DNA of 64,000 bases from Oscillibacter sp. (lineage in GTDB: Bacteria > Bacillota > Clostridia > Oscillospirales > Oscillospiraceae): the NCBI GenBank assembly GCA_022652655.1, contig JALCRQ010000003.1, positions 27,668 through 91,667 of the forward strand, written 5' to 3'. A program made the position numbers and the translations under genes. Below, piece by piece: positions 6,178 to 28,196 of the stretch (position 1 is its first letter; every line of letters starts with the position of its first letter). The notes beneath the pieces are model-generated. The model worked only from the letters and a program-made list of their open reading frames with translations. It ran no database searches and had not been told where the DNA came from.

Positions 6178-7955
6178 GGCGCTTTCCTCCCGTCACCCGG
6201 ACCGTTCTTTCTGTTCTTTTCTGTCAGGATTGCCAGCCTGTCGCTGGAAGAAGTTTTCTTCTGATATTCCGCGTGAATTTTTTCTATGTAGTCCCGCAGG
6301 GCCTGTTCCCGCTTTTCGGGCACTTCCGGATTCTGCATCGCCCCGCTGAGAAAACTCATTTCCTCCGGCTCCAGCACCCCGGCCAGCGCCGTAAGGCTGA
6401 CCTCCCGGCCCTCTGCCCGCAGCGCCCAGAGAAGCTCAAAGACCTTTCCGTACAGCGGACAGGAAAATTCCTCGGTGCGCAGAGGCGGCTTTGGCGGAAA
6501 CAGGGAATCGTCCAGCAGAAAAAGCCGCAGAACCCCCTCCTCCGCCCGGGCGGACGCCAGATTTTCAAAGCGCAGCGACCGCTCACGGGGCTGCAGCTCC
6601 GCCGCGGGGTTGAGATCCTTCCGGAGCTGGGCCCGGCGGGCCTTTCCGGTGAGACGCTTCTGCGCCCGCTGCACCTCCAGGGCCATGGCGGCAGCGTCGA
6701 TGCCCGCTTTTTCGGCGGCCCGCTTCGTGTAGACGTCCCGCTCCGCCGCCCCGGCCAGGCCGGCCAGCAGTTCGCTGATCTCCCCGCAGTAGGCGATGCG
6801 CGCGCGGTCGTCTGAAAGATCATATTTTCCGGCGACCTGCGTCATGCGGAATTCCACGCCGCTTCCGCTGCCGGAGAGAAGCTGTTCAAACGCCGCGGCG
6901 CCCTGGTACTTGATAAAATCGTCGGCGTCCTGCTTGACGGATTCGCCGTCCTGCAGGCGTCTGGGGAGCTGCAGGACCCGAACGGTGAATTCGGAGTTGT
7001 TGAGAATCTGCAGCGCCCGCTCCGTGGCGATTTTTCCGGCGTTGTCGTTGTCGTAGCAGAGGACCAGCTCTTTGGTATACCGGGAGAGGAGCCGGGTCTG
7101 CTCCGTTGTCAGCGCGGTGCCCATGGAGGCCACTGCGTTGTCGAAACCCGCCTGGTGCAGGGTGACAATATCCAGATTCCCCTCGCAGAGGATGATGTTG
7201 GGACGCTTGGACTTCTTTGCCAGATTCAGGCCGTAAAGGGTTTTCCGTTTACTGTATACCGGCGTTTCCGGGGAGTTCATATACTTCGGTTCGGATTTGT
7301 CCAGCACCCGGCCGCCGAAGGCGACCACATCGCCCCGCACGTCGATGACGGGCAGCATCAGCCGGCTGCGGAACTTGTCGTACAGACGTCCGTTTTTCCC
7401 CTGAACCACCAGTCCCGCGCTGAGCAGCTCCGATTTGGAATAGCCTTTTTTTGTCATGGCGGTGAGCAGGGCGTCCCAGCTGTCCGCCGACGCACCCATG
7501 CCGAATTTGACCGCGGTGGCGCGGGTAATTTTCCGCCGGTCCAGATAGTCCTGAACGGCGCGGCCCTCCGGCCCCTGGAGCGTCTGATAAAAAAACCGCG
7601 CCGCGTCCCGGTTTAAATCCAGCAGCCGCATCCTTCTCCGGGATTCCTCCCGGTCGCCGTCCTCCTCCGGGACCTCCATTCCGGCGCGTTTGGCCAGAAA
7701 GCGCACGGCGTCGGGGAAGCTCAGGTTTTCCTCCTCCATGATGAAGTTGATCACGCCGCCGCCCCGTTTGCAGCCGAAGCAGTAGTAGATCTGCTTGTCC
7801 GAAAGGACGTGAAAGGAAGGCGTCTTTTCCGAGTGAAAGGGGCAGCAGGCCCAATAGCTGCCGCCCTTGCTGGTCAGCGGCACGTAGCTGCCCACCACGT
7901 CCACAATGTCGCTCCGGGCAATCAATTCCTCCAGAAATGACTGCGGAAATGCCAT
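6174..7955 (-). CDS. dnaG: DNA primase
   Basis: Zinc-ribbon [14 protein letters not shown]...CFGC and a Toprim region ([14 protein letters not shown]...YDNDNAG). There is a 4-nt ATGA overlap with rpoD, the classical dnaG-rpoD arrangement. Confidence 0.95.
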
Positions 7956-12284: not shown

Positions 12285-12488
12285 AAGATTCCTCCTTAAG
12301 CCAAACTTTGCTGTCCATTATAACAAAAAAGAGGGCGGATTACAATCGATTGGGAAGAATATTTTACCTGCCGGCAGTGTAATTTGCCCGGTGCCATTGA
12401 TAAAACCCCTTGAGCCGCAAAAGACATTGACTTGTTTCCCGGAAAGATGCAGAATAAGAGACAATCCGACAAAAGGGGAGGAGACGCG

Positions 12489-13169
12489 GTGCGCTACGGA
12501 ACAGTTATCCCGGGCAGGTTCCGGGAACGGCCCAATCGCTTTATCGCGATTGTGGATACGGAGGACGGCCGGCAGATCTGCCATGTGAAAAACACGGGCC
12601 GCTGCCGGGAGCTGCTGGTGCCCGGCGCCGCGGTTTATCTGGAGCGGGCGGAGAATCCCGCCCGAAAGACCCGGTTTGATCTCATTGCCGTGCGCAAGGG
12701 AGAACGCCTCATCAATATGGACGCCCAGGCGCCCAACCGGGTGTTCGGCGAGTGGGCGGCCGCGGGCGGTTTTCTTCCCGACGTGCGGAGCATCCGGCCG
12801 GAGTATGTCTACGGTGGGTCGCGGCTGGATTTCTGCCTTACCACGGATCGGGGGCTTCACCTGGTGGAGGTCAAGGGCGTCACGCTGGAGAGCCGCGGCG
12901 CGGCCTTTTTTCCGGACGCCCCTACGGAGCGGGGTGTCCGGCATTTGGGGGAGCTGGCCCGCGCCGTAGGAGAGGGACTTGACGCAACGCTGTTTTTTGT
13001 GATACAACTAGAAAATATCCGCAGTATGGCTCCCAACGACGCCACGCATCCGGCTTTCGGCGCGGCGCTGCGTGGGGCGGCGGCTGCGGGCGTACACATT
13101 CAGGCCTGGGACTGTACCGTGACGCCGGATACCATTGAGATCTGCCGTCCGGTTCCGGTCATTTTATAA
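12489..13169 (+). CDS. sfsA: sugar fermentation stimulation protein SfsA (nuclease-fold DNA-binding protein)
   Basis: GRFRERPNRFIAIV...CHVKNTGRCRELL...VEVKGVTL. The GTG at 12489 follows GGGGAGGAG. The track ORF begins at TTG 12432, which is an alternative start. Confidence 0.85.
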   Translation: MRYGTVIPGRFRERPNRFIAIVDTEDGRQICHVKNTGRCRELLVPGAAVYLERAENPARKTRFDLIAVRKGERLINMDAQAPNRVFGEWAAAGGFLPDVRSIRPEYVYGGSRLDFCLTTDRGLHLVEVKGVTLESRGAAFFPDAPTERGVRHLGELARAVGEGLDATLFFVIQLENIRSMAPNDATHPAFGAALRGAAAAGVHIQAWDCTVTPDTIEICRPVPVIL

Positions 13170-13185
13170 TGCGGAGGACTTTTTC

Positions 13186-13761
13186 ATGGGTTTACCGGAG
13201 CTCTTTTTGATCGGGGTGGGCCTTTCCATGGACGCGTTTGCCGTGGCGGTCTGCCGGGGGCTGTCCATGCGGAGGCTGAACTGGGGACATGCCCTGATTA
13301 TCGCGCTGTATTTTGGGGGCTTTCAGGCGCTGATGCCGCTTCTGGGGTGGCTGCTGGGGTCCCGTTTCGCCGGGTACATCCAAAGTGTGGATCACTGGAT
13401 CGCCTTTGTCCTGCTGGCGCTGATCGGCGGGAACATGGTTCGAGAGGCCTTCGGCGAGGGGGATGACTGCGCCGGCGGCGCCTGTGAGAGCGGCGACCGA
13501 CTGGATTACAAGCAGCTTTTTCTGATGGCCGTGGCCACCAGCATCGACGCGCTGGCTGTGGGCGTGACCTTCGCCTTTCTCAGCGTCTCCATTGTGCCCG
13601 CCGTCTCCATCATCGGCGTGACAACCTTCTGCCTGTCTGTGGCAGGCGTGGTCATCGGGAACGTCTTCGGCGCCCGGTACAAGCGCCGGGCAGAGATCAC
13701 CGGCGGAATCATTCTGATTCTGCTGGGGGCTAAGATTCTCATCGAGCATCTGCTCAGCTGA
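13186..13761 (+). CDS. mntP: manganese efflux pump MntP family
   Basis: Two DUF204 repeats (GLSMDAFAVAV / ATSIDALAVGV) across six hydrophobic segments. ATG 13186 follows the RBS GCGGAGGA. Confidence 0.85.
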   Translation: MGLPELFLIGVGLSMDAFAVAVCRGLSMRRLNWGHALIIALYFGGFQALMPLLGWLLGSRFAGYIQSVDHWIAFVLLALIGGNMVREAFGEGDDCAGGACESGDRLDYKQLFLMAVATSIDALAVGVTFAFLSVSIVPAVSIIGVTTFCLSVAGVVIGNVFGARYKRRAEITGGIILILLGAKILIEHLLS

Positions 13762-13769
13762 GCTTTTTC

Positions 13770-13797
13770 TTGCATTTTTTCACAGCTGTGCTACAAT
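13770..13797 (+). promoter_or_regulatory. sigma-A-like promoter with extended -10
   Basis: TTGCAT (13770-75), a 16-nt spacer, then TGc-TACAAT (13789-97). Confidence 0.55.
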
Positions 13798-13846
13798 AAC
13801 TGCGATCAGAACCCGCGCGCAGTCCGCTGCGCCGCAATCTGAAAAT

Positions 13847-13910
13847 CCGGGGAAAGAAGTGCTCCCCTGGCTTTGCCAAAACCGCTTGAAAGAGCTGATG
13901 ACTTCTGCTG
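13847..13910 (+). promoter_or_regulatory. candidate fluoride riboswitch aptamer (crcB motif)
   Basis: P1 is GGGG 13849-52 / CCCC 13864-67. Loop AGAAGU (13855-60) is complementary to ACUUCU (13901-06), giving a pseudoknot. The AAAAC linker is at 13878-82, P3 GCU-UGAAAG-AGC at 13884-95 and UGAUG at 13896-900. This order matches my memory of known fluoride aptamers; details are in the findings. Confidence 0.55.
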
Positions 13911-13941
13911 AAGGGCAGAGATCACCGGCTCTTTTGTTTTT
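13891..13941 (+). terminator. intrinsic terminator / expression platform of the leader
   Basis: AGAGCUGAUGACUUCUGC (13891-908) pairs with GCAGAGAUCACCGGCUCU (13915-32), with 2 mismatches and 2 G-U pairs, then UUUUGUUUUU. The left arm overlaps the aptamer's P3 3' strand and pseudoknot 3' strand. Confidence 0.7.
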
Positions 13942-13988
13942 GCGCGGAAGGGTGAGCAAAAAGATCAGATAGAAATGGATGAGGAAAC

Positions 13989-15503
13989 GTGTTTGAGAGT
14001 ATTTTATTTCCTGCGGGGGCCCCGCAGCCTGCGCGTGTGCAGAGCCCGCCGGAATTTTTCGACGATCTGGGCCTGAGCCGGATCATCGCCCGGGCGGGCC
14101 GCGGCTGCGAGGAGCTGTGGCCGTTTTATACCCCGCTTTCCGACCCGGCTGTCATCCGCTACCGCCAGGAGGTGGGGCGGGATCTGGAGGATGCCGCCCT
14201 GCGGTACCGGTTCGCGGGACTGGCCCAGCAGCTCCGGGCGCTGAGCCGGCAGCTCTCGGCCCACCGGACAGAGGACTTTCCATGGGTGCGGTGCAGCGAT
14301 CTTCTCTCCGCCGCGGGACAGTATCTGGAGCAGCTGCGCGCATTTTTGGAGGATTTTCCCTACGGGAGCGTCCATTCGGAGGGACTGGAGTCGTTTTTGC
14401 TCCACATCCGCCAGCATCTGAACAGCGCCCGGACCGTCCAGATGAGCATGGAGCTTTCCAAGCTGGAGCGGGAGCTGTGCGGGGTGGATTACTGCATCCT
14501 GCTGGACGGCAACACGCTCCGGGTAGGCGGCCCGGGGAAATCCCAGGAGATTGACGGGCTGGTGGAGTCGCTGTTTGACCGGTTCGGACAGGAGAATTTC
14601 GGCGGCGGAACCTGCCAGGCGCCGGGAGGCGAGCAGGACGTCCGGAACGAGGATGCGGTGCTGTCCCTTCTGGCGCGGGAGCACCCCGAGACGTTTCGCC
14701 GCCTGGCGGACTTTGGCCGGCGGTACGGCGATTTTGCCGATCCCGGGATTCTGGCCTTTGCCCGGGAGCTTCCGTTCTACCTGGGGTATCTGGACGCCAC
14801 GGACGGCATTGCCCGCGCCGGCGGCTCCTTCTGCTATCCCGCGCTGCTGGACGGATGGGACGGCTGCCGGGGAGAGGACGGCTTTGACCTGGCTCTGGCC
14901 ATGCGGCTGCAGGAAGCCGGCGGGAAGCCGGTGGAAAACAGCTTCGCGCTGCACGGGCGGGAGCGGATTCTGGTCGTCACGGGGCCGAATCAGGGCGGAA
15001 AGACCACCTATGCCAGGATGCTGGGCCAGATCTTCTATCTGGCGTCCCTGGGCGTGCGGGTGCCGGGCAGAGCTGCGGCGCTGCGGATTCCGGATCGGAT
15101 CTGCACGCACTTCGGAAAGGCGGGGCCGGACGGCGCGGACGGTCTGCGCCAGGAGCTCACGCGGCTGCGGGGCCTTCTGGAGCAGACCACCCAGGGGAGC
15201 CTGGTGATCCTCAATGAGATTTTTGCCTCCGCCTCTCACGGCGACGGCGTATATCTGGGGGAAAAGCTGATGGAGCGGCTGACGGACACCGGCTGCATGG
15301 CGGTATTCGTCACTTTCCTGTACGAGCTGGCCGACTGCGGACCGGCTGTGGTCAGCGTGATGAGCGAGATCCGGCCCGGTACCGCGGCGGAGCGGAGCTA
15401 TCACATTGCGCGGCACGCGCCCAACGGCTGCGCCTATGCGCTGTCGCTGGCGGAAAAGCTGGGATTGACCCGTGAGAAAATCACCGGGAGGCTGGAACAA
15501 TGA
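13989..15503 (+). CDS. MutS-family ATPase (domains III/V only), paralog 1, Walker B variant NE
   Basis: Walker A VVTGPNQGGKTTYARMLGQ. Walker B region SLVILNEIFASASHGDG (canonical MutS has DE). No mismatch-binding N-terminal domain and no Smr or endonuclease tail. GTG start follows GAGGA. Confidence 0.8.
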   Translation: MFESILFPAGAPQPARVQSPPEFFDDLGLSRIIARAGRGCEELWPFYTPLSDPAVIRYRQEVGRDLEDAALRYRFAGLAQQLRALSRQLSAHRTEDFPWVRCSDLLSAAGQYLEQLRAFLEDFPYGSVHSEGLESFLLHIRQHLNSARTVQMSMELSKLERELCGVDYCILLDGNTLRVGGPGKSQEIDGLVESLFDRFGQENFGGGTCQAPGGEQDVRNEDAVLSLLAREHPETFRRLADFGRRYGDFADPGILAFARELPFYLGYLDATDGIARAGGSFCYPALLDGWDGCRGEDGFDLALAMRLQEAGGKPVENSFALHGRERILVVTGPNQGGKTTYARMLGQIFYLASLGVRVPGRAAALRIPDRICTHFGKAGPDGADGLRQELTRLRGLLEQTTQGSLVILNEIFASASHGDGVYLGEKLMERLTDTGCMAVFVTFLYELADCGPAVVSVMSEIRPGTAAERSYHIARHAPNGCAYALSLAEKLGLTREKITGRLEQ

Positions 15504-16969
15504 GAGTTTGTCTGATGGATGCGGACGCCGGCCGGCGGTTCGGAGCTCCGCTGCCCTTTGGCGCAGAGGACGTTAAAAAAGATCTGGGGCTGGAGGAAGT
15601 CATCGGGGCCATGGCGGGGGAGGACCCGGTGATCCGCGCCTCGGCGGAGACGGCGCTGCTCTCTCCCCTGAAAGAGGAGGAGCGGATTCTCTACCGCCAG
15701 CGGATTCTTCGGGACTGTCTCCGGAATCCCCGGGAGATCCGCAGGCTGTATGCCCTGGCCGGCGCGGCGCTGGACGCCCAGGAGGACGGAGACCTGCACT
15801 TCAGCGAGCTGCAGACGGTGAGCCGTCAGTTTGACCGGTGCCTGACCCGGCTGACCCGGCTTCTGGAGGCGCTTCAAAAACTGCGGGCACTGGCGGAGGA
15901 GAACCGGGAGAGCGTGTCGTCGCCCGGGCTTCAGGGCCTTTTCAAAGACCTTCTCGGCAACCTGGACGACGCCTTTTTCTCCGGGGCCGATCAGCTGCTG
16001 GCCCAGCTGCGGTTTCCCGGGGGGATGCTGATCGGCGCCCGGCTGAGCCGGACGGGGCGGAGCGTGGGGCACAGGCTCCTGTGCTGCGGCCCGGAGGAGC
16101 GGGACCGTCTGAGCGGCGAGACTTTCTATCAGGTGCCGGAGGGCGATCAGCGGGGAAACGCGGATCTGCTGCACCGGCGGGAGCTGGCTCTGGCCGACAG
16201 CAACCGGATTCTGGTGCGGGCCGTATCCGGCGTGTGCGAGTATCTGCGGACGCTGCGGCGGGAGCTGGCATTTTACATCGGGTGCATGAACCTGTACGAG
16301 CTTTTGCAGGCCCGGGGCCTGGCGGTCTGCTTTCCCGCGCTCTCGGCGCAGCCGGAGCACTGGAGCGCGGCCGGACTTACGGAGCTGTGCCTTGGCCTTC
16401 AGGGGAGCGCCCCTGCCTCCAACGACCTGGAGGCCGACGGCTGCTGCCTTGTCACCGGAGCGGATCAGGGGGGAAAGACCACCTTTTTGCGCTCCCTGGG
16501 TCAGGCGCAGCTGATGCTGCAGTGCGGGATGTTTACAGCAGCGTCGTCCTTCCGGGCTCCCGCCGCGGACGGGGTGTATACCCACTTCCAGCGGGAGGAG
16601 GACCGGGGACTTGTCAACGGCAAGCTGGGCGAGGAGCTGTCCCGGATGAGCGGCATTGTGGATCACCTTCACCGGGGCTCGCTGGTGCTGTGCGACGAGA
16701 GCTTCTGCTCCACCAACGAGCGGGAGGGGGCGGAGATCGCCCTTCAGGTGACGGAGGCCCTGCGCGCCGCGGGCGTGTCTGTTTTTGCGGTGACCAATCT
16801 CTTTCCCTTTGCCCGGGAGCTGTACGCCAGGCGGAAGGCGGAGCCCTGCACCTTCCTGCGGGCGGAGCGGCTGGCGGACGGTACCCGCACCAGACGGATT
16901 CTGCCGGGGGAGCCCCAGAGGACCTCCTTCTGCGAGGATCTGTACCGGGAAATTTTTCAGGAGGCCTGA
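15500..16969 (+). CDS. MutS-family ATPase (domains III/V only), paralog 2, canonical DE Walker B
   Basis: Walker A LVTGADQGGKTTFLRSLGQ. Walker B SLVLCDESFCSTNEREG. ATGA overlap with the upstream paralog. Confidence 0.8.
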   Translation: MRVCLMDADAGRRFGAPLPFGAEDVKKDLGLEEVIGAMAGEDPVIRASAETALLSPLKEEERILYRQRILRDCLRNPREIRRLYALAGAALDAQEDGDLHFSELQTVSRQFDRCLTRLTRLLEALQKLRALAEENRESVSSPGLQGLFKDLLGNLDDAFFSGADQLLAQLRFPGGMLIGARLSRTGRSVGHRLLCCGPEERDRLSGETFYQVPEGDQRGNADLLHRRELALADSNRILVRAVSGVCEYLRTLRRELAFYIGCMNLYELLQARGLAVCFPALSAQPEHWSAAGLTELCLGLQGSAPASNDLEADGCCLVTGADQGGKTTFLRSLGQAQLMLQCGMFTAASSFRAPAADGVYTHFQREEDRGLVNGKLGEELSRMSGIVDHLHRGSLVLCDESFCSTNEREGAEIALQVTEALRAAGVSVFAVTNLFPFARELYARRKAEPCTFLRAERLADGTRTRRILPGEPQRTSFCEDLYREIFQEA

Positions 16970-17072: not shown

Positions 17073-18836
17073 TTATTCGGCGCTGTGGGTATCCCGAAGC
17101 TCCTGGGTGCGCACCAGCTGGGCGTAGGCGCCGTTCTTCTCCATCAGTTCCCCGTGGGAGCCGATTTCGGCGATTCGTCCGTCCTCGATCACCGCGATCC
17201 GGTCCGCGTTCCGCACGGTGGAGAGGCGGTGGGCGATGATGACGGTGGTGCGGCCCCGGGCCAGCTTTTCAAAGGTGTGCTGGATTTTGGCCTCTGTGAC
17301 GCTGTCCAGAGCGGAGGTGGCCTCGTCCAGAATCAGCACCGGGGGATCCTTCAGAAAAATCCGGGCGATGGAAATGCGCTGCTTCTGTCCGCCGGAGAGC
17401 AGGGTGCCCCGCTCGCCCACGTAGGTGTCGAAGCCGTCGGGCAGGGACGCGATGTCGTCGTAGATCTCCGCCAGACGGGCCGCCTGCTCCACCTCCGCCT
17501 CAGCGGCGCCGGGCTTGCCGTAGCGGATGTTTTCCAGCACGCTGTCGGCAAAGAGAAATACGTCCTGCTGCACCACGCCTACGTTTTGCCGCAGGGACTC
17601 CTGGGTGACGTCCCGCACGTCCGTTCCGTCGATGCGGATGCACCCCGACGACACGTCGTAAAACCGGGGAATCAGCTGGCACAGGGTGGACTTTCCGCCG
17701 CCGGAGGGCCCCACCACCGCCAGCGTCTCCCCCGGGCGGATGTGGAGATCCACGTCGTGCAGCACCGCCAGATCGTCCTGATAGGCGAAGCTCACGTGTT
17801 CCACGTCGATCTGTCCCCGGACCCGGGCCAGAATTTTGGCGTCCGGCGCGTCCCGGAGGGAGGGCTCCGTCCGCATCAGCTCCACGAAGCGGTGGAGCCC
17901 GGCGGTGCCGTTGGCGAACAGCTCCGCGAAGTTGGAGAGCTTGCGCACGGGTGTGACGAAGGTGGTGATATAGAGGCTGAAGGTGATGAGATCGATGGTG
18001 TTCATCTTCCCGCCCATGATGAGCCCTCCGCCCACGGCGATGACGGCGGCGGGGAGAATACACAGGAAAAACTCCATGGTGGCGTTGAACCGCCCCATGG
18101 CCTTGTGAAACTGCCGCTTGGAAACCTTGAAGCTGTCATTGGAGACGTCGAACTTCCGCAGCTCTGTATCCTCGTTGGCAAAGGCTTTGGCGGTTTTGAT
18201 GCCGGACAGTCCGGATTCAATGTCCGCGTTGATGGCCGCGGTTTTCTGCTTGACCCGAACAGACGCCTCGCCCATGGAGCGCCGGCTGCGCCAGATCACC
18301 AGAAAGAAAACCGGGAGGATCAGGGTAATGACCAGGGCCAGCCGCCACTGAATGGTGAACATGACGCAAAGGGAGCCTGTGATGGTCACGGCCGAGATAA
18401 AGACGTCCTCCGGCCCGTGGTGCGCCAGCTCCGTAATATCGAAAAGATCGGCAGTGAGGCGGCTCATCAGCTGGCCGGTGCGGTTTTGATCGAAGTACCG
18501 GAAGCTGAGCTCCTGCATGTGGTGAAAGAGATCCCGCCGGATGTCGGCCTCCACCAGGATGCCGAAGGTGTGCCCCCAGTAGCAGATGACATAGGAGAGC
18601 AGCGAGCGGAGGGCAAACGCTGCGAATACCACGGCCATCACCGCGAAAAAAGTCCGGTATGCGCTCTGGGGCAGCAGCTCGTACATGCACCAGCGGGAGA
18701 TGTACGGGAACGCCAGGTCGATCAGGGAGATCAGCAGGGCGCAGGACATGTCCAGAATAAAGAGCTTTTTGTGGGGCGGGAAATAGGAGAGAAAAATCCG
18801 AAGGGCGGATTTATTCTGAAAATCGCGGGTTGTCAT
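17073..18836 (-). CDS. ABC exporter, fused permease/ATPase (MsbA/multidrug type)
   Basis: Six-TM N-terminal half. Walker A GPSGGGKST, signature LSGGQKQR, Walker B ILILDEATSALD. Confidence 0.9.
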   Translation of the reverse strand: MTTRDFQNKSALRIFLSYFPPHKKLFILDMSCALLISLIDLAFPYISRWCMYELLPQSAYRTFFAVMAVVFAAFALRSLLSYVICYWGHTFGILVEADIRRDLFHHMQELSFRYFDQNRTGQLMSRLTADLFDITELAHHGPEDVFISAVTITGSLCVMFTIQWRLALVITLILPVFFLVIWRSRRSMGEASVRVKQKTAAINADIESGLSGIKTAKAFANEDTELRKFDVSNDSFKVSKRQFHKAMGRFNATMEFFLCILPAAVIAVGGGLIMGGKMNTIDLITFSLYITTFVTPVRKLSNFAELFANGTAGLHRFVELMRTEPSLRDAPDAKILARVRGQIDVEHVSFAYQDDLAVLHDVDLHIRPGETLAVVGPSGGGKSTLCQLIPRFYDVSSGCIRIDGTDVRDVTQESLRQNVGVVQQDVFLFADSVLENIRYGKPGAAEAEVEQAARLAEIYDDIASLPDGFDTYVGERGTLLSGGQKQRISIARIFLKDPPVLILDEATSALDSVTEAKIQHTFEKLARGRTTVIIAHRLSTVRNADRIAVIEDGRIAEIGSHGELMEKNGAYAQLVRTQELRDTHSAE

Positions 18837-21317: not shown

Positions 21318-21397
<80 letters not shown>

Positions 21398-21651: not shown

Positions 21652-22371
21652 TCAGTCCTGGGCCGTGCCTCCGTCCGAAAGCCGCAGCATCCGGTAGCCC
21701 ACGTTCACGTGGGTCTGGATGAGCTTCTGCCCCAGCGGCACCTCCAGCTTTTTGCGCAGCGTCGCCATATAGACCCGCAGAGACGGCGAGTCGTAGGGCA
21801 GGGCGTTCTGCCAGACCTCTTTGATAAAGTAGTTGTGGGTGAGCACCTTGCCCACATTGCGGCTGAGCAGGCACAGCAGCTTGTATTCGATGGGGGAGAG
21901 GTGAATTTCCCGACCGTCCACAAAAACGCACCCGCCGGCATAATCAATTTTCAGCGGGCCGTTGGTGAAAACCAACTCCTGCTCCGCCGCGCTGCCCCGC
22001 AGGTACTGCAGCCGCCGCAGTGCCACCCGCAGCCGGGCCAGCAGCTCGTCGATGCTGAAGGGCTTGGTGAGGTAGTCGTCCGCGCCGGCGTCCAGGGCGG
22101 CGATTTTATCCGAGTCGTCGCTGCGGGAGCTGACGATGATGATGGGCATCTGCGACCAGGTGCGGGTTTTGACGATCACATCCACGCCGTCCATGTCCGG
22201 AAGGCCCAGGTCCAGAATCATCAGGTCTGGCTGCTGGGAAACCGAGGTGAGGATGGCAGCCTTGCCGGTCTCCGCGCTCTCGTGCCGGTAGCCCTGGGAC
22301 TCCAGCGTCAGTGCGATGAGATTGCGCACGGGCTTGTCGTCCTCAACGATCAGCACCAGGGGCTTTGTCAT
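21652..22371 (-). CDS. kdpE: OmpR-family response regulator, KdpE-like
   Basis: Receiver domain (LIVEDD...DLMILDLGLPDMDG...IIVSSRSDDSDKIAALDAGADDYLTKPF) plus a winged-helix output domain. RBS GAGGAGG. Confidence 0.85.
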   Translation of the reverse strand: MTKPLVLIVEDDKPVRNLIALTLESQGYRHESAETGKAAILTSVSQQPDLMILDLGLPDMDGVDVIVKTRTWSQMPIIIVSSRSDDSDKIAALDAGADDYLTKPFSIDELLARLRVALRRLQYLRGSAAEQELVFTNGPLKIDYAGGCVFVDGREIHLSPIEYKLLCLLSRNVGKVLTHNYFIKEVWQNALPYDSPSLRVYMATLRKKLEVPLGQKLIQTHVNVGYRMLRLSDGGTAQD

Positions 22372-24295
22372 TGAAATCTGCCTCCTCTCGTTTCAGAGAA
22401 AATGAAAATACGGCGCCGTGGGGCTTCGCGTCGCCCACCGTGATCTGTCCGCCGTGGGCCTCCACAATGGCCCGGCACAGAGCCAGCCCCAGTCCCAGGC
22501 CGCGGCGGTCGTCGCCGCGGAGTTTTTCGCCTGTATAGAACATCTCAAAGACATGGGCCTGCGCCTCCCGGGGGACGCCCAGCCCGTTGTCCGCCACGGA
22601 GATCCAGACCAGATCGCCCTCCTCCCGGGCCGACGCCGTGATGACGGAGCCCTCGGGGGTATATTTGATGGCGTTGTTCAGCAGGTTTACCAGCACCTGG
22701 TTGATCAGCGGCGCGTCCATCCGGGCGAACAGCAGCTCGCTGCCGGCCTCCACGCGGACAGTCCGCCCGCCGGAGCGCCGGATCACATGGGAGACGGCCT
22801 CGTCCAGCACGTCGCCCACCAGCTCCGGGCGCAGGTTGAGCTTCAGCGCGGCGTCGTCCATCCGGGTGATGGACAGCAGGTTTTCCACCAGGCTGATGAG
22901 CCAGGTGGAGTCGTCGTAAATGTTCTCGTAGAGAGACTGGCGCTGGGCGTCGCTGAGCACCACAGAGCCGTTCATCAGCATGTCGGCGTTGCCGGAGATG
23001 GTGGTCAGCGGTGTGCGCAGGTCGTGGGAGATGGAGCGGAGCAGGTTTGCCCGCAGCTTTTCCTGCTCCGCGGCCACGGCCAGAGACTGCTTGGCCTGCC
23101 AGAGCCGGTGCTTTTCCAACGCGGCTCCGCATTCGCCCAGCAGGGCCAGGAGCAGGCTGCGGTCAAACTCGTCGATATTCTCGCCGGGATTCAGCAGCAC
23201 CCCCACCACCACGCGGACGCGGCCGTGGCCCCGGATGGGAAAATACAGCCCGTCCTCGCCGCGCACCGCAGCCGGAGCGCCGGCCTCGCCTGTCAAAACG
23301 CACCGCAGGCCCTCCACCGCCCGGGGGGAGGGGGAATCGTCCGGCGCGTCGGTTACCAGCAGCGGTTTGTCCGGCGCCCCGTCGGTGACCGAGGCCACCA
23401 GAATAGGCCGGCCCAGCAGCTTGTGGAGCTGCCGGCCCGTCTCGGAGATGATATCCCCGTCGTTCTCCGCCGTCTGAAGATTCTGGCTGGCGGTGAGCAG
23501 CACTTCGGTGCGGTAGGCCTTGCGGGCGTTGGCACGGGCCTGGGTTTTGACCTTTGTGGTCAGGGAACCGGTCAGCATGGCCACCGCCAGCATGACGAAA
23601 AAGGTCAGCGGGTAGCTGCTGTCATAGGCCCGGAAGGTGAAACGCGGGTCGGTGAAGAAAAAATTGAACACCAGCACACTGAGCACGGATACGGCGATGC
23701 CGTAGGCCGGTCCCTCCGTAAAGTACGCGCACAGCAGCACCGAGAGAATATAGACCGGGATGATGCTGGCCGCGGGAAAGCGCCACTGCCACAGCAGCAG
23801 GCCGATTGCGGTGGCCGCGGTCAGAAGGCTCAGGGCAATGAGCGTAAAGCGCACGGAGAGACGGCGCCGGGGCCGCTGCCGCTCCCGGGGCGGGCGGGCC
23901 TGATTGTCTGGAATGATAAAGACCTCCAGCGTGGGGACCAGCTGCAGAAGCTGCTGCACGATGTCCGCGCCCCGCAGGCCCCGGCGCCGCTCGGCGGCCG
24001 GTCGGCCGATGACGATTTTCTTCACCTGGGCGGCGGTGACATAGAGAGCGATCTGTTCGACGACGGAGCCTCCGCTGACGTTGACCACCCGGGCGCCGCA
24101 GGATTTGGCCAGAGCGCTGTTGCGCTCCAGCCGCTTCCGGTCCTCAGGACTGATTCCGTCCATGGGCTCGACATAGAGGGCGGTGAGCTCGGCCTGATAG
24201 ACCCGGGCCATTTTATCGGCGGCCAGGACCACCTTTTCATTGGACGGCGACGGGGACAGGCAGACGAGGATCTGTTCGGCTGCGGGCGCTTCCAT
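22343..24295 (-). CDS. kdpD: KdpD-like sensor histidine kinase lacking the N-terminal KdpD (P-loop) domain
   Basis: The protein starts directly in a USP-like domain (ILVCLSPSPSNEKVVLAADKMA). This is followed by four TM segments, a GAF-like region, the H-box SISHDLRTPLTTI and a HATPase domain (NLLNNAIKYTP...DNGLGVP). I place the start at ATG 24295 after AGAGGAGGAA; the track start at 24340 is less likely. Confidence 0.85.
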   Translation of the reverse strand: MEAPAAEQILVCLSPSPSNEKVVLAADKMARVYQAELTALYVEPMDGISPEDRKRLERNSALAKSCGARVVNVSGGSVVEQIALYVTAAQVKKIVIGRPAAERRRGLRGADIVQQLLQLVPTLEVFIIPDNQARPPRERQRPRRRLSVRFTLIALSLLTAATAIGLLLWQWRFPAASIIPVYILSVLLCAYFTEGPAYGIAVSVLSVLVFNFFFTDPRFTFRAYDSSYPLTFFVMLAVAMLTGSLTTKVKTQARANARKAYRTEVLLTASQNLQTAENDGDIISETGRQLHKLLGRPILVASVTDGAPDKPLLVTDAPDDSPSPRAVEGLRCVLTGEAGAPAAVRGEDGLYFPIRGHGRVRVVVGVLLNPGENIDEFDRSLLLALLGECGAALEKHRLWQAKQSLAVAAEQEKLRANLLRSISHDLRTPLTTISGNADMLMNGSVVLSDAQRQSLYENIYDDSTWLISLVENLLSITRMDDAALKLNLRPELVGDVLDEAVSHVIRRSGGRTVRVEAGSELLFARMDAPLINQVLVNLLNNAIKYTPEGSVITASAREEGDLVWISVADNGLGVPREAQAHVFEMFYTGEKLRGDDRRGLGLGLALCRAIVEAHGGQITVGDAKPHGAVFSFSLKREEADFNDKAPGADR

Positions 24296-24332
24296 GCGGA
24301 TTCCTCCTCTTTCCCGGACGGATGAATGAATA

Positions 24333-24833
24333 TTACTCACAATTATAACACCGATATCTCCGGATTGCGAGCACCGCCAGCAAGATTGCCCCGCCGCTCA
24401 GCACGCCGGCCGCCGCAGCCAGCGGGCGGGAGAGAGGCACAGGCTCCTCCGCGCCCCGGGAGACGACGCGCAGGGTGTCGGCGTGGAGGTCCAGATCTCC
24501 GCCGTGATCCGCGCAGGCGCGATGGTATACGCCCTCCAGGCGCACGGTGTCCCCCCGCACGCCGTACCGTCCGTACAGACTGATTTTTTCGGCCTGATCG
24601 GCCCGCACCCAGCAGCCGATGGCGTTTTCGCCGTCGGACACGTTGATCCAGGCATGGTCGCCCCGGGGGAGTATTTCTCCGATGGCCTCCCCCTCAAAGG
24701 AGACCGTCTTGCCGTCCCACCGGGCGGCGTCCTCAATGAGATCGGCGGAGCCGACCTCCGCCGCCGCGGCGCGCGCCGGAAGGCACGCCAGCGGCAGGAC
24801 CAGCAGCAGAATTACCAGTATTTTTGACTGCAT
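24333..24833 (-). CDS. exported / C-terminally TM-anchored hypothetical protein (beta-rich, OB-fold-like)
   Basis: ATG 24833 follows AAAGGTGA. Signal peptide MQSKILVILLLVLPLACLPARAAAA and a C-terminal TM helix. The gene lies between trkH and kdpD and overlaps both neighbours. Confidence 0.55.
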   Translation of the reverse strand: MQSKILVILLLVLPLACLPARAAAAEVGSADLIEDAARWDGKTVSFEGEAIGEILPRGDHAWINVSDGENAIGCWVRADQAEKISLYGRYGVRGDTVRLEGVYHRACADHGGDLDLHADTLRVVSRGAEEPVPLSRPLAAAAGVLSGGAILLAVLAIRRYRCYNCE

Positions 24834-28120: not shown

Positions 28121-28196
28121 TGGTGGAGACAAGGAGGATCGAACTCCTGACCTCATGACTGCCAGTCATGCGCTCTCCCAGCTGAGCTATGCCCCC
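28121..28196 (-). tRNA. tRNA-Ala (anticodon GGC)
   Basis: The reverse complement folds as GGGGGCA-TA-GCTC-AGCTGGGA-GAGC-G-CATGA-CTGGCAG-TCATG-AGGTC-AGGAG-TTCGATC-CTCCT-TGTCTCC-A-CCA. The G3:U70 Ala identity pair is present. Confidence 0.9.

Follow-up and report, generated by a model that had tools for sequence, protein, structure and literature searches.

A predicted transcriptional ON-type fluoride riboswitch of a variant sequence subclass upstream of a mutS4A-mutS4B operon in Oscillibacter sp.

The crcB motif is a riboswitch class that was found upstream of mutS, K+/Cl- transporter and formate hydrogen lyase genes and that often overlaps transcription terminators (Weinberg et al. 2010). In the Thermotoga petrophila fluoride aptamer (4ENC), as described in a bioRxiv paper, the phosphates of A6, U7, G8, U41 and G42 hold the three fluoride-binding Mg2+ ions. 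Long-range pairs form between A6 and U38 and between A40 and U48, with A40 as the linchpin, and U7 stacks on G39. MutS4A and MutS4B, on the protein side, are encoded by adjacent genes in which the A stop codon overlaps the B start, carry the C-terminal MutS domain only, and are scattered across phyla including Thermoanaerobacter; their function was not studied when they were named (Lin, Nei & Ma 2007, PMC2190696).

The locus studied here lies in a 64,000-nucleotide stretch of Oscillibacter sp. DNA (the window). When this 64-kb window was scanned against Rfam at gathering thresholds, three matches were returned: two tRNA genes, at 21321-21394 (+) and 28124-28196 (-), and the fluoride (crcB) family RF01734 at 13841-13914 (+). 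The RF01734 match is full-length (model positions 1-64 of 64) and marginal, scoring 34.9 bits against a gathering score of 34 (+0.9 bit), with E-values of 6e-6 for the window and 3e-8 for a 301-nt region. A permissive Rfam scan of 13700-14000 gave no other family of note. An earlier note on this DNA had proposed a fluoride riboswitch between mntP and a MutS-like gene and had named an RF01734 search as its check, which has now returned a score above threshold. Reading the sequence from 13600 to 14100 located each element that the note had listed for this gap. Taken with the covariation, the terminator overlap and the gene context described below, the match supports the call, ligand binding being predicted. 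We estimate at roughly 0.88 the probability that this RNA is a transcriptional ON-type fluoride riboswitch that controls the two-gene operon mutS4A-mutS4B.

All aptamer elements lie on the forward strand. The P1 hairpin (13849-13867) pairs GGGGA (13849-53) with UCCCC (13863-67), as given by the Rfam alignment and by covariation in 62 aptamers and 58 subclass members, both introduced below. The four pairs previously read here (GGGG 13849-52 with CCCC 13864-67) hold, within a helix that is in fact five pairs long. The longer helix leaves a 9-nt loop, AAGAAGUGC (13854-62), against a consensus of 8 nt, so that the loop has one extra nucleotide and not the two to three reported before. Loops of 9 nt also occur in three homologous loci (L025, L027 and L018), all with U7 retained. 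The window loop contains the A6 equivalent (13854), an A (13855) where U7 would be expected, and GAAGU (13856-60) as the 5' strand of the pseudoknot. Between P1 and the linker, the Infernal alignment shows an insertion of 10-11 nt, which corresponds to an extra hairpin, UGGC-UUU-GCCA (13868-13878). This is followed in the Rfam alignment by the A-rich linker AAACC (13879-13883; consensus AACC) and by P3 (13884-13895), which is also borne out by pair counts in the subclass alignment. P3 sits where the note had placed it, but its stem is GCUU/GAGC, with four pairs, one of them U-G, closing a GAAA loop. Directly after P3, the junction UGAUG (13896-13900), already read there by the note, supplies the equivalents of U38, G39, A40, U41 and G42; its columns are invariant or nearly so in the 62 aptamers.

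After UGAUG, the Infernal alignment continues with ACUUCUGC. The pseudoknot joins GAAGU (13856-60) to ACUUC (13901-05), is followed by the U48 equivalent U13906, and consists of pair types that are the covarying types of the 62 aptamers. The complementarity noticed earlier between AGAAGU (13855-60) and ACUUCU (13901-06) is exact. A13855 could pair with the linchpin U13906, and its presence at the U7 position counts against our preferred reading, as do the extra hairpin, the additional loop nucleotide, the narrow margin of the Rfam score, the weak -35 element described below and the lack of a fluoride exporter gene in the window. The UGC after the pseudoknot, previously listed as a deviation, is present and proves to be a common variant, found in 19 of the 62 aptamers.

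To place the ligand pocket, 4ENC positions were transferred to window numbering through what we take to be the T. petrophila 52-mer sequence. Seven of the eight pocket and linchpin positions (A6, U7, G8, U38, A40, U41, G42 and U48) are retained in the window: A6 at 13854, G8 at 13856, U38, A40, U41 and G42 within 13896-13900, and U48 at 13906. The exception is U7, which corresponds to A13855. Compared with the described RF01734 systems (the Bacillus cereus crcB ON switch and T. petrophila 4ENC), the window RNA thus shares equivalents of A6, G8, U38, A40, U41, G42 and U48, as well as the 5-bp P1-loop pseudoknot with its 3' tail, the A-rich linker, P3 and UGAUG. It also shares a terminator 5' arm drawn from the 3' half of the aptamer and a position in the 5' leader of a fluoride-regulon gene. 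It differs in the A for U7, the one extra P1-loop nucleotide and the 11-nt hairpin after P1.

Homologous loci were collected to assess conservation. A single-protein search of genome contigs returned no relatives; an alignment-based query found them. The resulting 86 loci comprise 80 from many phyla, whose homologues share 34-40% identity, and six closer ones (54-60%; L081-L086). Cultivable carriers among the fetched loci include Paraburkholderia, Caballeronia, Nocardia and Thermoanaerobacter. Sixty loci were scanned with Rfam at the gathering threshold, which gave fluoride aptamers by the dozen, and the remainder with our own covariance model, R1. An aptamer lies upstream on the same strand in 69 of the 86 loci (~80%), within 400 nt in 56 and farther upstream in 13; the other 17 have none upstream. 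These counts agree with the mutS association that the earlier note had named and that Weinberg et al. 2010 indeed list for the crcB motif. R1, built from canonical aptamers, served only to count aptamers in the loci; its placement in the window (13860-13914) was rejected as misaligned, the extra hairpin having been taken for P1, and the window anatomy was drawn from the Rfam alignment.

Covariation was evaluated in a MAFFT alignment, not fitted to structure, of 62 gathering-level aptamers including that of the window. The P1 and pseudoknot positions are 97.1% paired, versus 49-63% with slid partners. Seven of the nine pairs show changes on both sides, a score reached by none of 500 shuffles. 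For the pseudoknot itself, 99.4% of pairs are intact and four of five carry changes on both sides. P1 and the pseudoknot therefore covary in homologous leaders that carry the same aptamer; a lack of such covariation would, by the note, have spoken against the call.

At the U7 position, the 62 aptamers near MutS4 genes have U in 57 cases and A in five. All five A7 aptamers take the form GGGA-AAGARGUKC-UCCC and bear the inserted hairpin. A metagenome scan with the pattern GGGAAAGARGT-N15-45-GCTGATGACTTCT yielded 69 matches in 62 loci, and 67 of the 69 show the whole architecture, extra hairpin included. The 58 distinct subclass sequences align well. Because much of P1 and of the pseudoknot was prescribed by the search pattern, they may belong to a single lineage, and A7 and the hairpin may go together by common descent and not for functional reasons. 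Within the extra hairpin, the outer pair (columns 20-34) is CG 36 times, GC 7, AU 2, UA 2 and UG 2; columns 22-32 are GC 48, CG 4, AU 1 and UA 1; and columns 23-28 are CG 33 and UA 5. The outer P1 pair (columns 1-19) is AU 11, UA 10, CG 6, GC 5 and UG 5.

Two features that had been put down as deviations of this one RNA, the 11-nt mini-hairpin UGGCUUUGCCA at 13868-78 and GAA for GAU before the pseudoknot, are thus present but recurrent in the subclass. As judged from the alignments, the window RNA is a member of a coherent fluoride-aptamer sequence subclass with A for U7, a 9-nt P1 loop and an extra covarying hairpin. Besides the window (13849-13908), members include L081:790-859, L084:3845-3920, L085:3868-3942, L086:286-362, L022:654-727 and the scanned loci L087-L148. 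The same three features account for the low RF01734 score of the window. The few subclass members that were scanned with Rfam score 34.7-40.1 bits, and L086:286-362 falls under the gathering score. Since A7 recurs in 5 of the 62 aptamers and in the 58 subclass sequences, the change would appear to be tolerated or adaptive. The extra hairpin also accompanies canonical U7 aptamers (L006, L026, L028, L032, L044 and L083). The minus strand of locus L137 bears a tandem pair of complete subclass riboswitches with a spacing of 141 nt, matched at 989-1044 and 1130-1185 when numbered on the reverse complement. Each has a terminator of its own, and immediately behind them lies a mutS4A gene whose product begins MFYSILFP.

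The A7 substitution raises the question of whether the subclass is a retuned or re-specified aptamer that keeps the fold and has a markedly different fluoride or Mg2+ affinity, or that binds another small anion or metal-anion complex. The change affects one of five pocket nucleotides, a 9-nt loop accompanies A7 in every case and the extra hairpin in nearly every case, and the Rfam scores of the group are low (34.7-40.1). The subclass-defining string was also not found in the 2010 crcB alignment (supplement). However, according to the 4ENC description the ligand contacts backbone phosphates and not the U7 base, and the genes behind the subclass aptamers are those of the standard fluoride regulon. 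Directly downstream lie CrcB (Pfam PF02537; a cluster of 17), MutS-like proteins (16), Na+/H+ exchangers (at least 7), MFS transporters (2), enolase (1) and a Rex-like regulator (1). Exporters, antiporters and enolase make up the classical fluoride regulon (2024 fluoride-resistance review), and the same MutS4 genes of other lineages stand behind canonical aptamers. From this gene context, the ligand of the subclass, and of the window RNA, is most likely still fluoride, and we regard retuning or a change of specificity as decidedly improbable. No crcB or other fluoride exporter gene was found in the 64-kb window.

Two further gene families also occur directly behind subclass aptamers: a 230-aa, weakly NifU_N-like protein in six loci (L092, L093, L100, L118, L130 and L146) and a dynamin-family GTPase in five (L091, L094, L096, L108 and L117). 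The GTPase is ~548 aa long and apparently truncated to 175-aa ORFs in three loci. In several of the loci with either protein, a MutS4 gene with its own aptamer follows 2-3 kb downstream.

Upstream of the window aptamer, a candidate -35 element, TTGCAT (13770-13775, +), and a candidate extended -10 element, TGcTACAAT (13789-13797, +), were read from the sequence with a 16-nt spacer between them, and we infer a transcription start near 13804. The good promoter announced by the earlier note is borne out as to its extended -10, while its -35 is weak; a consensus promoter scan called no promoter here because the -35 matches TTGACA at 3 of 6 positions only. Between the putative start and the aptamer, a G+C-rich leader hairpin without a U-run is predicted at 13806-13842 (+) (ViennaRNA fold of 13798-13848, -17.4 kcal/mol).

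Downstream, minimum-free-energy folds predict an intrinsic terminator at 13892-13941 (+), composed of a stem (13892-13931) followed by UUUUGUUUUU (13932-13941). Folding 13841-13945 gives -39.8 kcal/mol (z = -3.2 versus shuffles), with the same long hairpin before UUUUGUUUUU. A terminator scan missed the 13892-13941 hairpin owing to the internal mismatches in its stem. The terminator 5' arm reuses the P3 3' strand, the UGAUG junction and the pseudoknot 3' strand, the shared segment being 13892-13908. The fold thus confirms the overlap, and with it the ON-switch layout, that had been proposed for the P3 and pseudoknot 3' strands. The aptamer/terminator overlap recurs in folds of the leaders of L081, L084, L085, L022, L025, L027 and L018; in L086, the variant aptamer and the hairpin are followed by a weak U-run.

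In predicted stability, the terminator-containing fold, at -38.0 kcal/mol, greatly exceeds the sum of the nested aptamer helices (-15.0 kcal/mol) and the pseudoknot duplex (~-3 kcal/mol). This large gap fits a kinetically controlled switch, as in other class members. The same energies, with a 5-bp pseudoknot set against a far stronger terminator, and the marginal Rfam score could also describe a decayed aptamer relic, in which the hairpin and U-run would terminate or attenuate transcription constitutively between mntP and the operon that follows. Against this, 58 distinct loci have kept the variant while P1 and the extra hairpin underwent compensatory changes. The variant is also always placed in the 5' leader of a fluoride-regulon gene together with a terminator that overlaps it, and a constitutive terminator directly before conserved, intact genes would silence them. 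We consider a relic very improbable. Control mainly at the level of translation or RNA stability rather than transcription termination has scarcely any probability in our view. Some class members are translational, and L086 combines the variant aptamer and hairpin with a weak U-run, but the hairpin in the window leads directly into UUUUGUUUUU, and 40 nt separate that segment from the ribosome-binding site (13981-85), which takes no part in any aptamer-linked pairing.

A functional transcriptional switch would operate as follows. Transcription would initiate at the sigma-70-type promoter with its good extended -10 and weak -35, and the nascent leader would fold P1, the extra hairpin and P3. When fluoride is scarce, 13892-13908 would pair with 13915-13931 to form the terminator before the U-tract, and transcription would stop ahead of the genes. 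When fluoride is present, Mg2+ ions bound to the backbone at P1-loop and UGAUG nucleotides would hold it, as established for the class. Binding would lock the A13898-U13906 linchpin together with the pseudoknot of 13856-60 and 13901-05, withholding the terminator 5' arm and allowing read-through into mutS4A and mutS4B. The family match, the helix covariation, the mutually exclusive pairings and the conserved gene context are observed here. By analogy with the class, fluoride-Mg2+ would stabilize the pseudoknot and the A40-U48 linchpin cotranscriptionally and so block the terminator 3' arm.

The regulated genes start after a gap that, as noted before, measures 227 nt, from the mntP stop (13761) to a GTG start at 13989. 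The first ORF (13989-15503, +; 504 aa, GTG start) is mutS4A-like and is preceded by the ribosome-binding site GAGGA (13981-85, +); the second (15500-16969, +; 489 aa, ATG start) is mutS4B-like. Their stop and start codons overlap as ATGA (15500-15503). Both products match the Pfam family MutS_V, and Pfam and NCBIfam scans detect MutS domain V only, in keeping with the MutS-like genes reported by the note. The two proteins are 28% identical over ~467 residues, each with a Walker A motif, and the tandem pair is retained in all close relatives (L081-L086). From this architecture, the gene arrangement and a Thermoanaerobacter homologue (L006), the two ORFs match the MutS4A/MutS4B pair. Adjacent paralogues, the C-terminal ATPase region only by sequence, and the stop/start overlap are all shared with the description of that pair (PMC2190696).

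The first ORF product is 100% identical to an Oscillibacter sp. MAG protein. In public annotation, this identical protein (P0001) is given as 488 aa, with a start 16 codons downstream of GTG 13989. The N-terminus from that GTG, MFESILFP, matches the family consensus; the longer form is favoured, as suggested by the conserved xxFxSILFP N-terminus and by GAGGA at 13981-85.

The operon ends at 16969. Further MutS-like genes downstream in the operon were ruled out, the next gene being a convergent ABC transporter (17073-18836, -). Farther along, a KdpD-like sensor kinase (Usp, DUF4118, HisKA and HATPase domains) and an OmpR-type response regulator occupy 21652-24340 (-) as ordinary neighbours. On the upstream side, the longest mntP ORF (Pfam Mntp; 13135-13761) is overlapped by an sfsA ORF (12432-13169), and the Rfam scan detected no Mn2+ (yybP-ykoY) riboswitch upstream of mntP. 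Since no separate terminator follows mntP ahead of the riboswitch promoter, transcription continuing past mntP would run into the fluoride-controlled terminator as well.

Among the relatives, L081:901-6999 carries two consecutive MutS4A/B pairs (four genes) behind a single aptamer, and L083:4001-9518 has, in this order, a MutS4 pair, a fluoride aptamer (7047-7119), Usp and enolase genes, and another MutS-like gene, an arrangement that looks like a fluoride island. MutS genes go unmentioned in a 2024 review of fluoride resistance, and the text of a high-throughput fluoride riboswitch preprint names neither mutS nor an extra hairpin.

When the PDB sequences were searched with a profile of the mutS4A-like protein, only the ATPase region (~282-506) was matched. 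The AlphaFold2 model (pLDDT 85, pTM 0.83) comprises a helical core/lever, a small low-confidence clamp-like insert, and an ATPase with C-terminal helices; a mismatch-binding domain I, a connector domain II and an Smr domain are absent from it. Its best structural match is the Thermus MutS2 core (7vuk), to which it aligns over its full length (E = 3e-18, TM 0.56). The predicted MutS4A fold is thus like the Thermus thermophilus MutS2 core (7vuk/7vuf) over its whole length, but differs from it in having no Smr nuclease domain, in sharing ~20% identity, and in that MutS4A/B is encoded as a heteromeric pair under predicted fluoride control. Membership of the NCBIfam family KamC was rejected, with 59 bits against a cutoff of 300, the shared part being the ATPase domain only.

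A more far-reaching reading, which we consider unlikely, has two linked parts. The A7-plus-hairpin subclass would be structurally distinct, with A13855 joining U48-A40 as a base triple and thereby shifting sensitivity. The MutS4A/B heterodimer, the commonest non-transporter cargo of the subclass, would be a fluoride-damage response ATPase and not a DNA repair factor. It could clamp and remodel stalled complexes in the manner of MutS2, which acts on collided ribosomes, or of the MutS-like KamC reactivase, whose role on an inactivated enzyme is taken from its NCBIfam name.

The predicted switch adds one more fluoride riboswitch, in Oscillibacter, to a known class in a gene context that was described in 2010 (Weinberg 2010). 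The A7-plus-hairpin subclass lies at the edge of the Rfam threshold, so that members can be missed. Across many phyla, MutS4A/B is tightly coupled to fluoride aptamers, as seen in ~80% of the 86 sampled loci. If true, a distinct aptamer or an ATPase role of this kind would represent a new branch of fluoride resistance.
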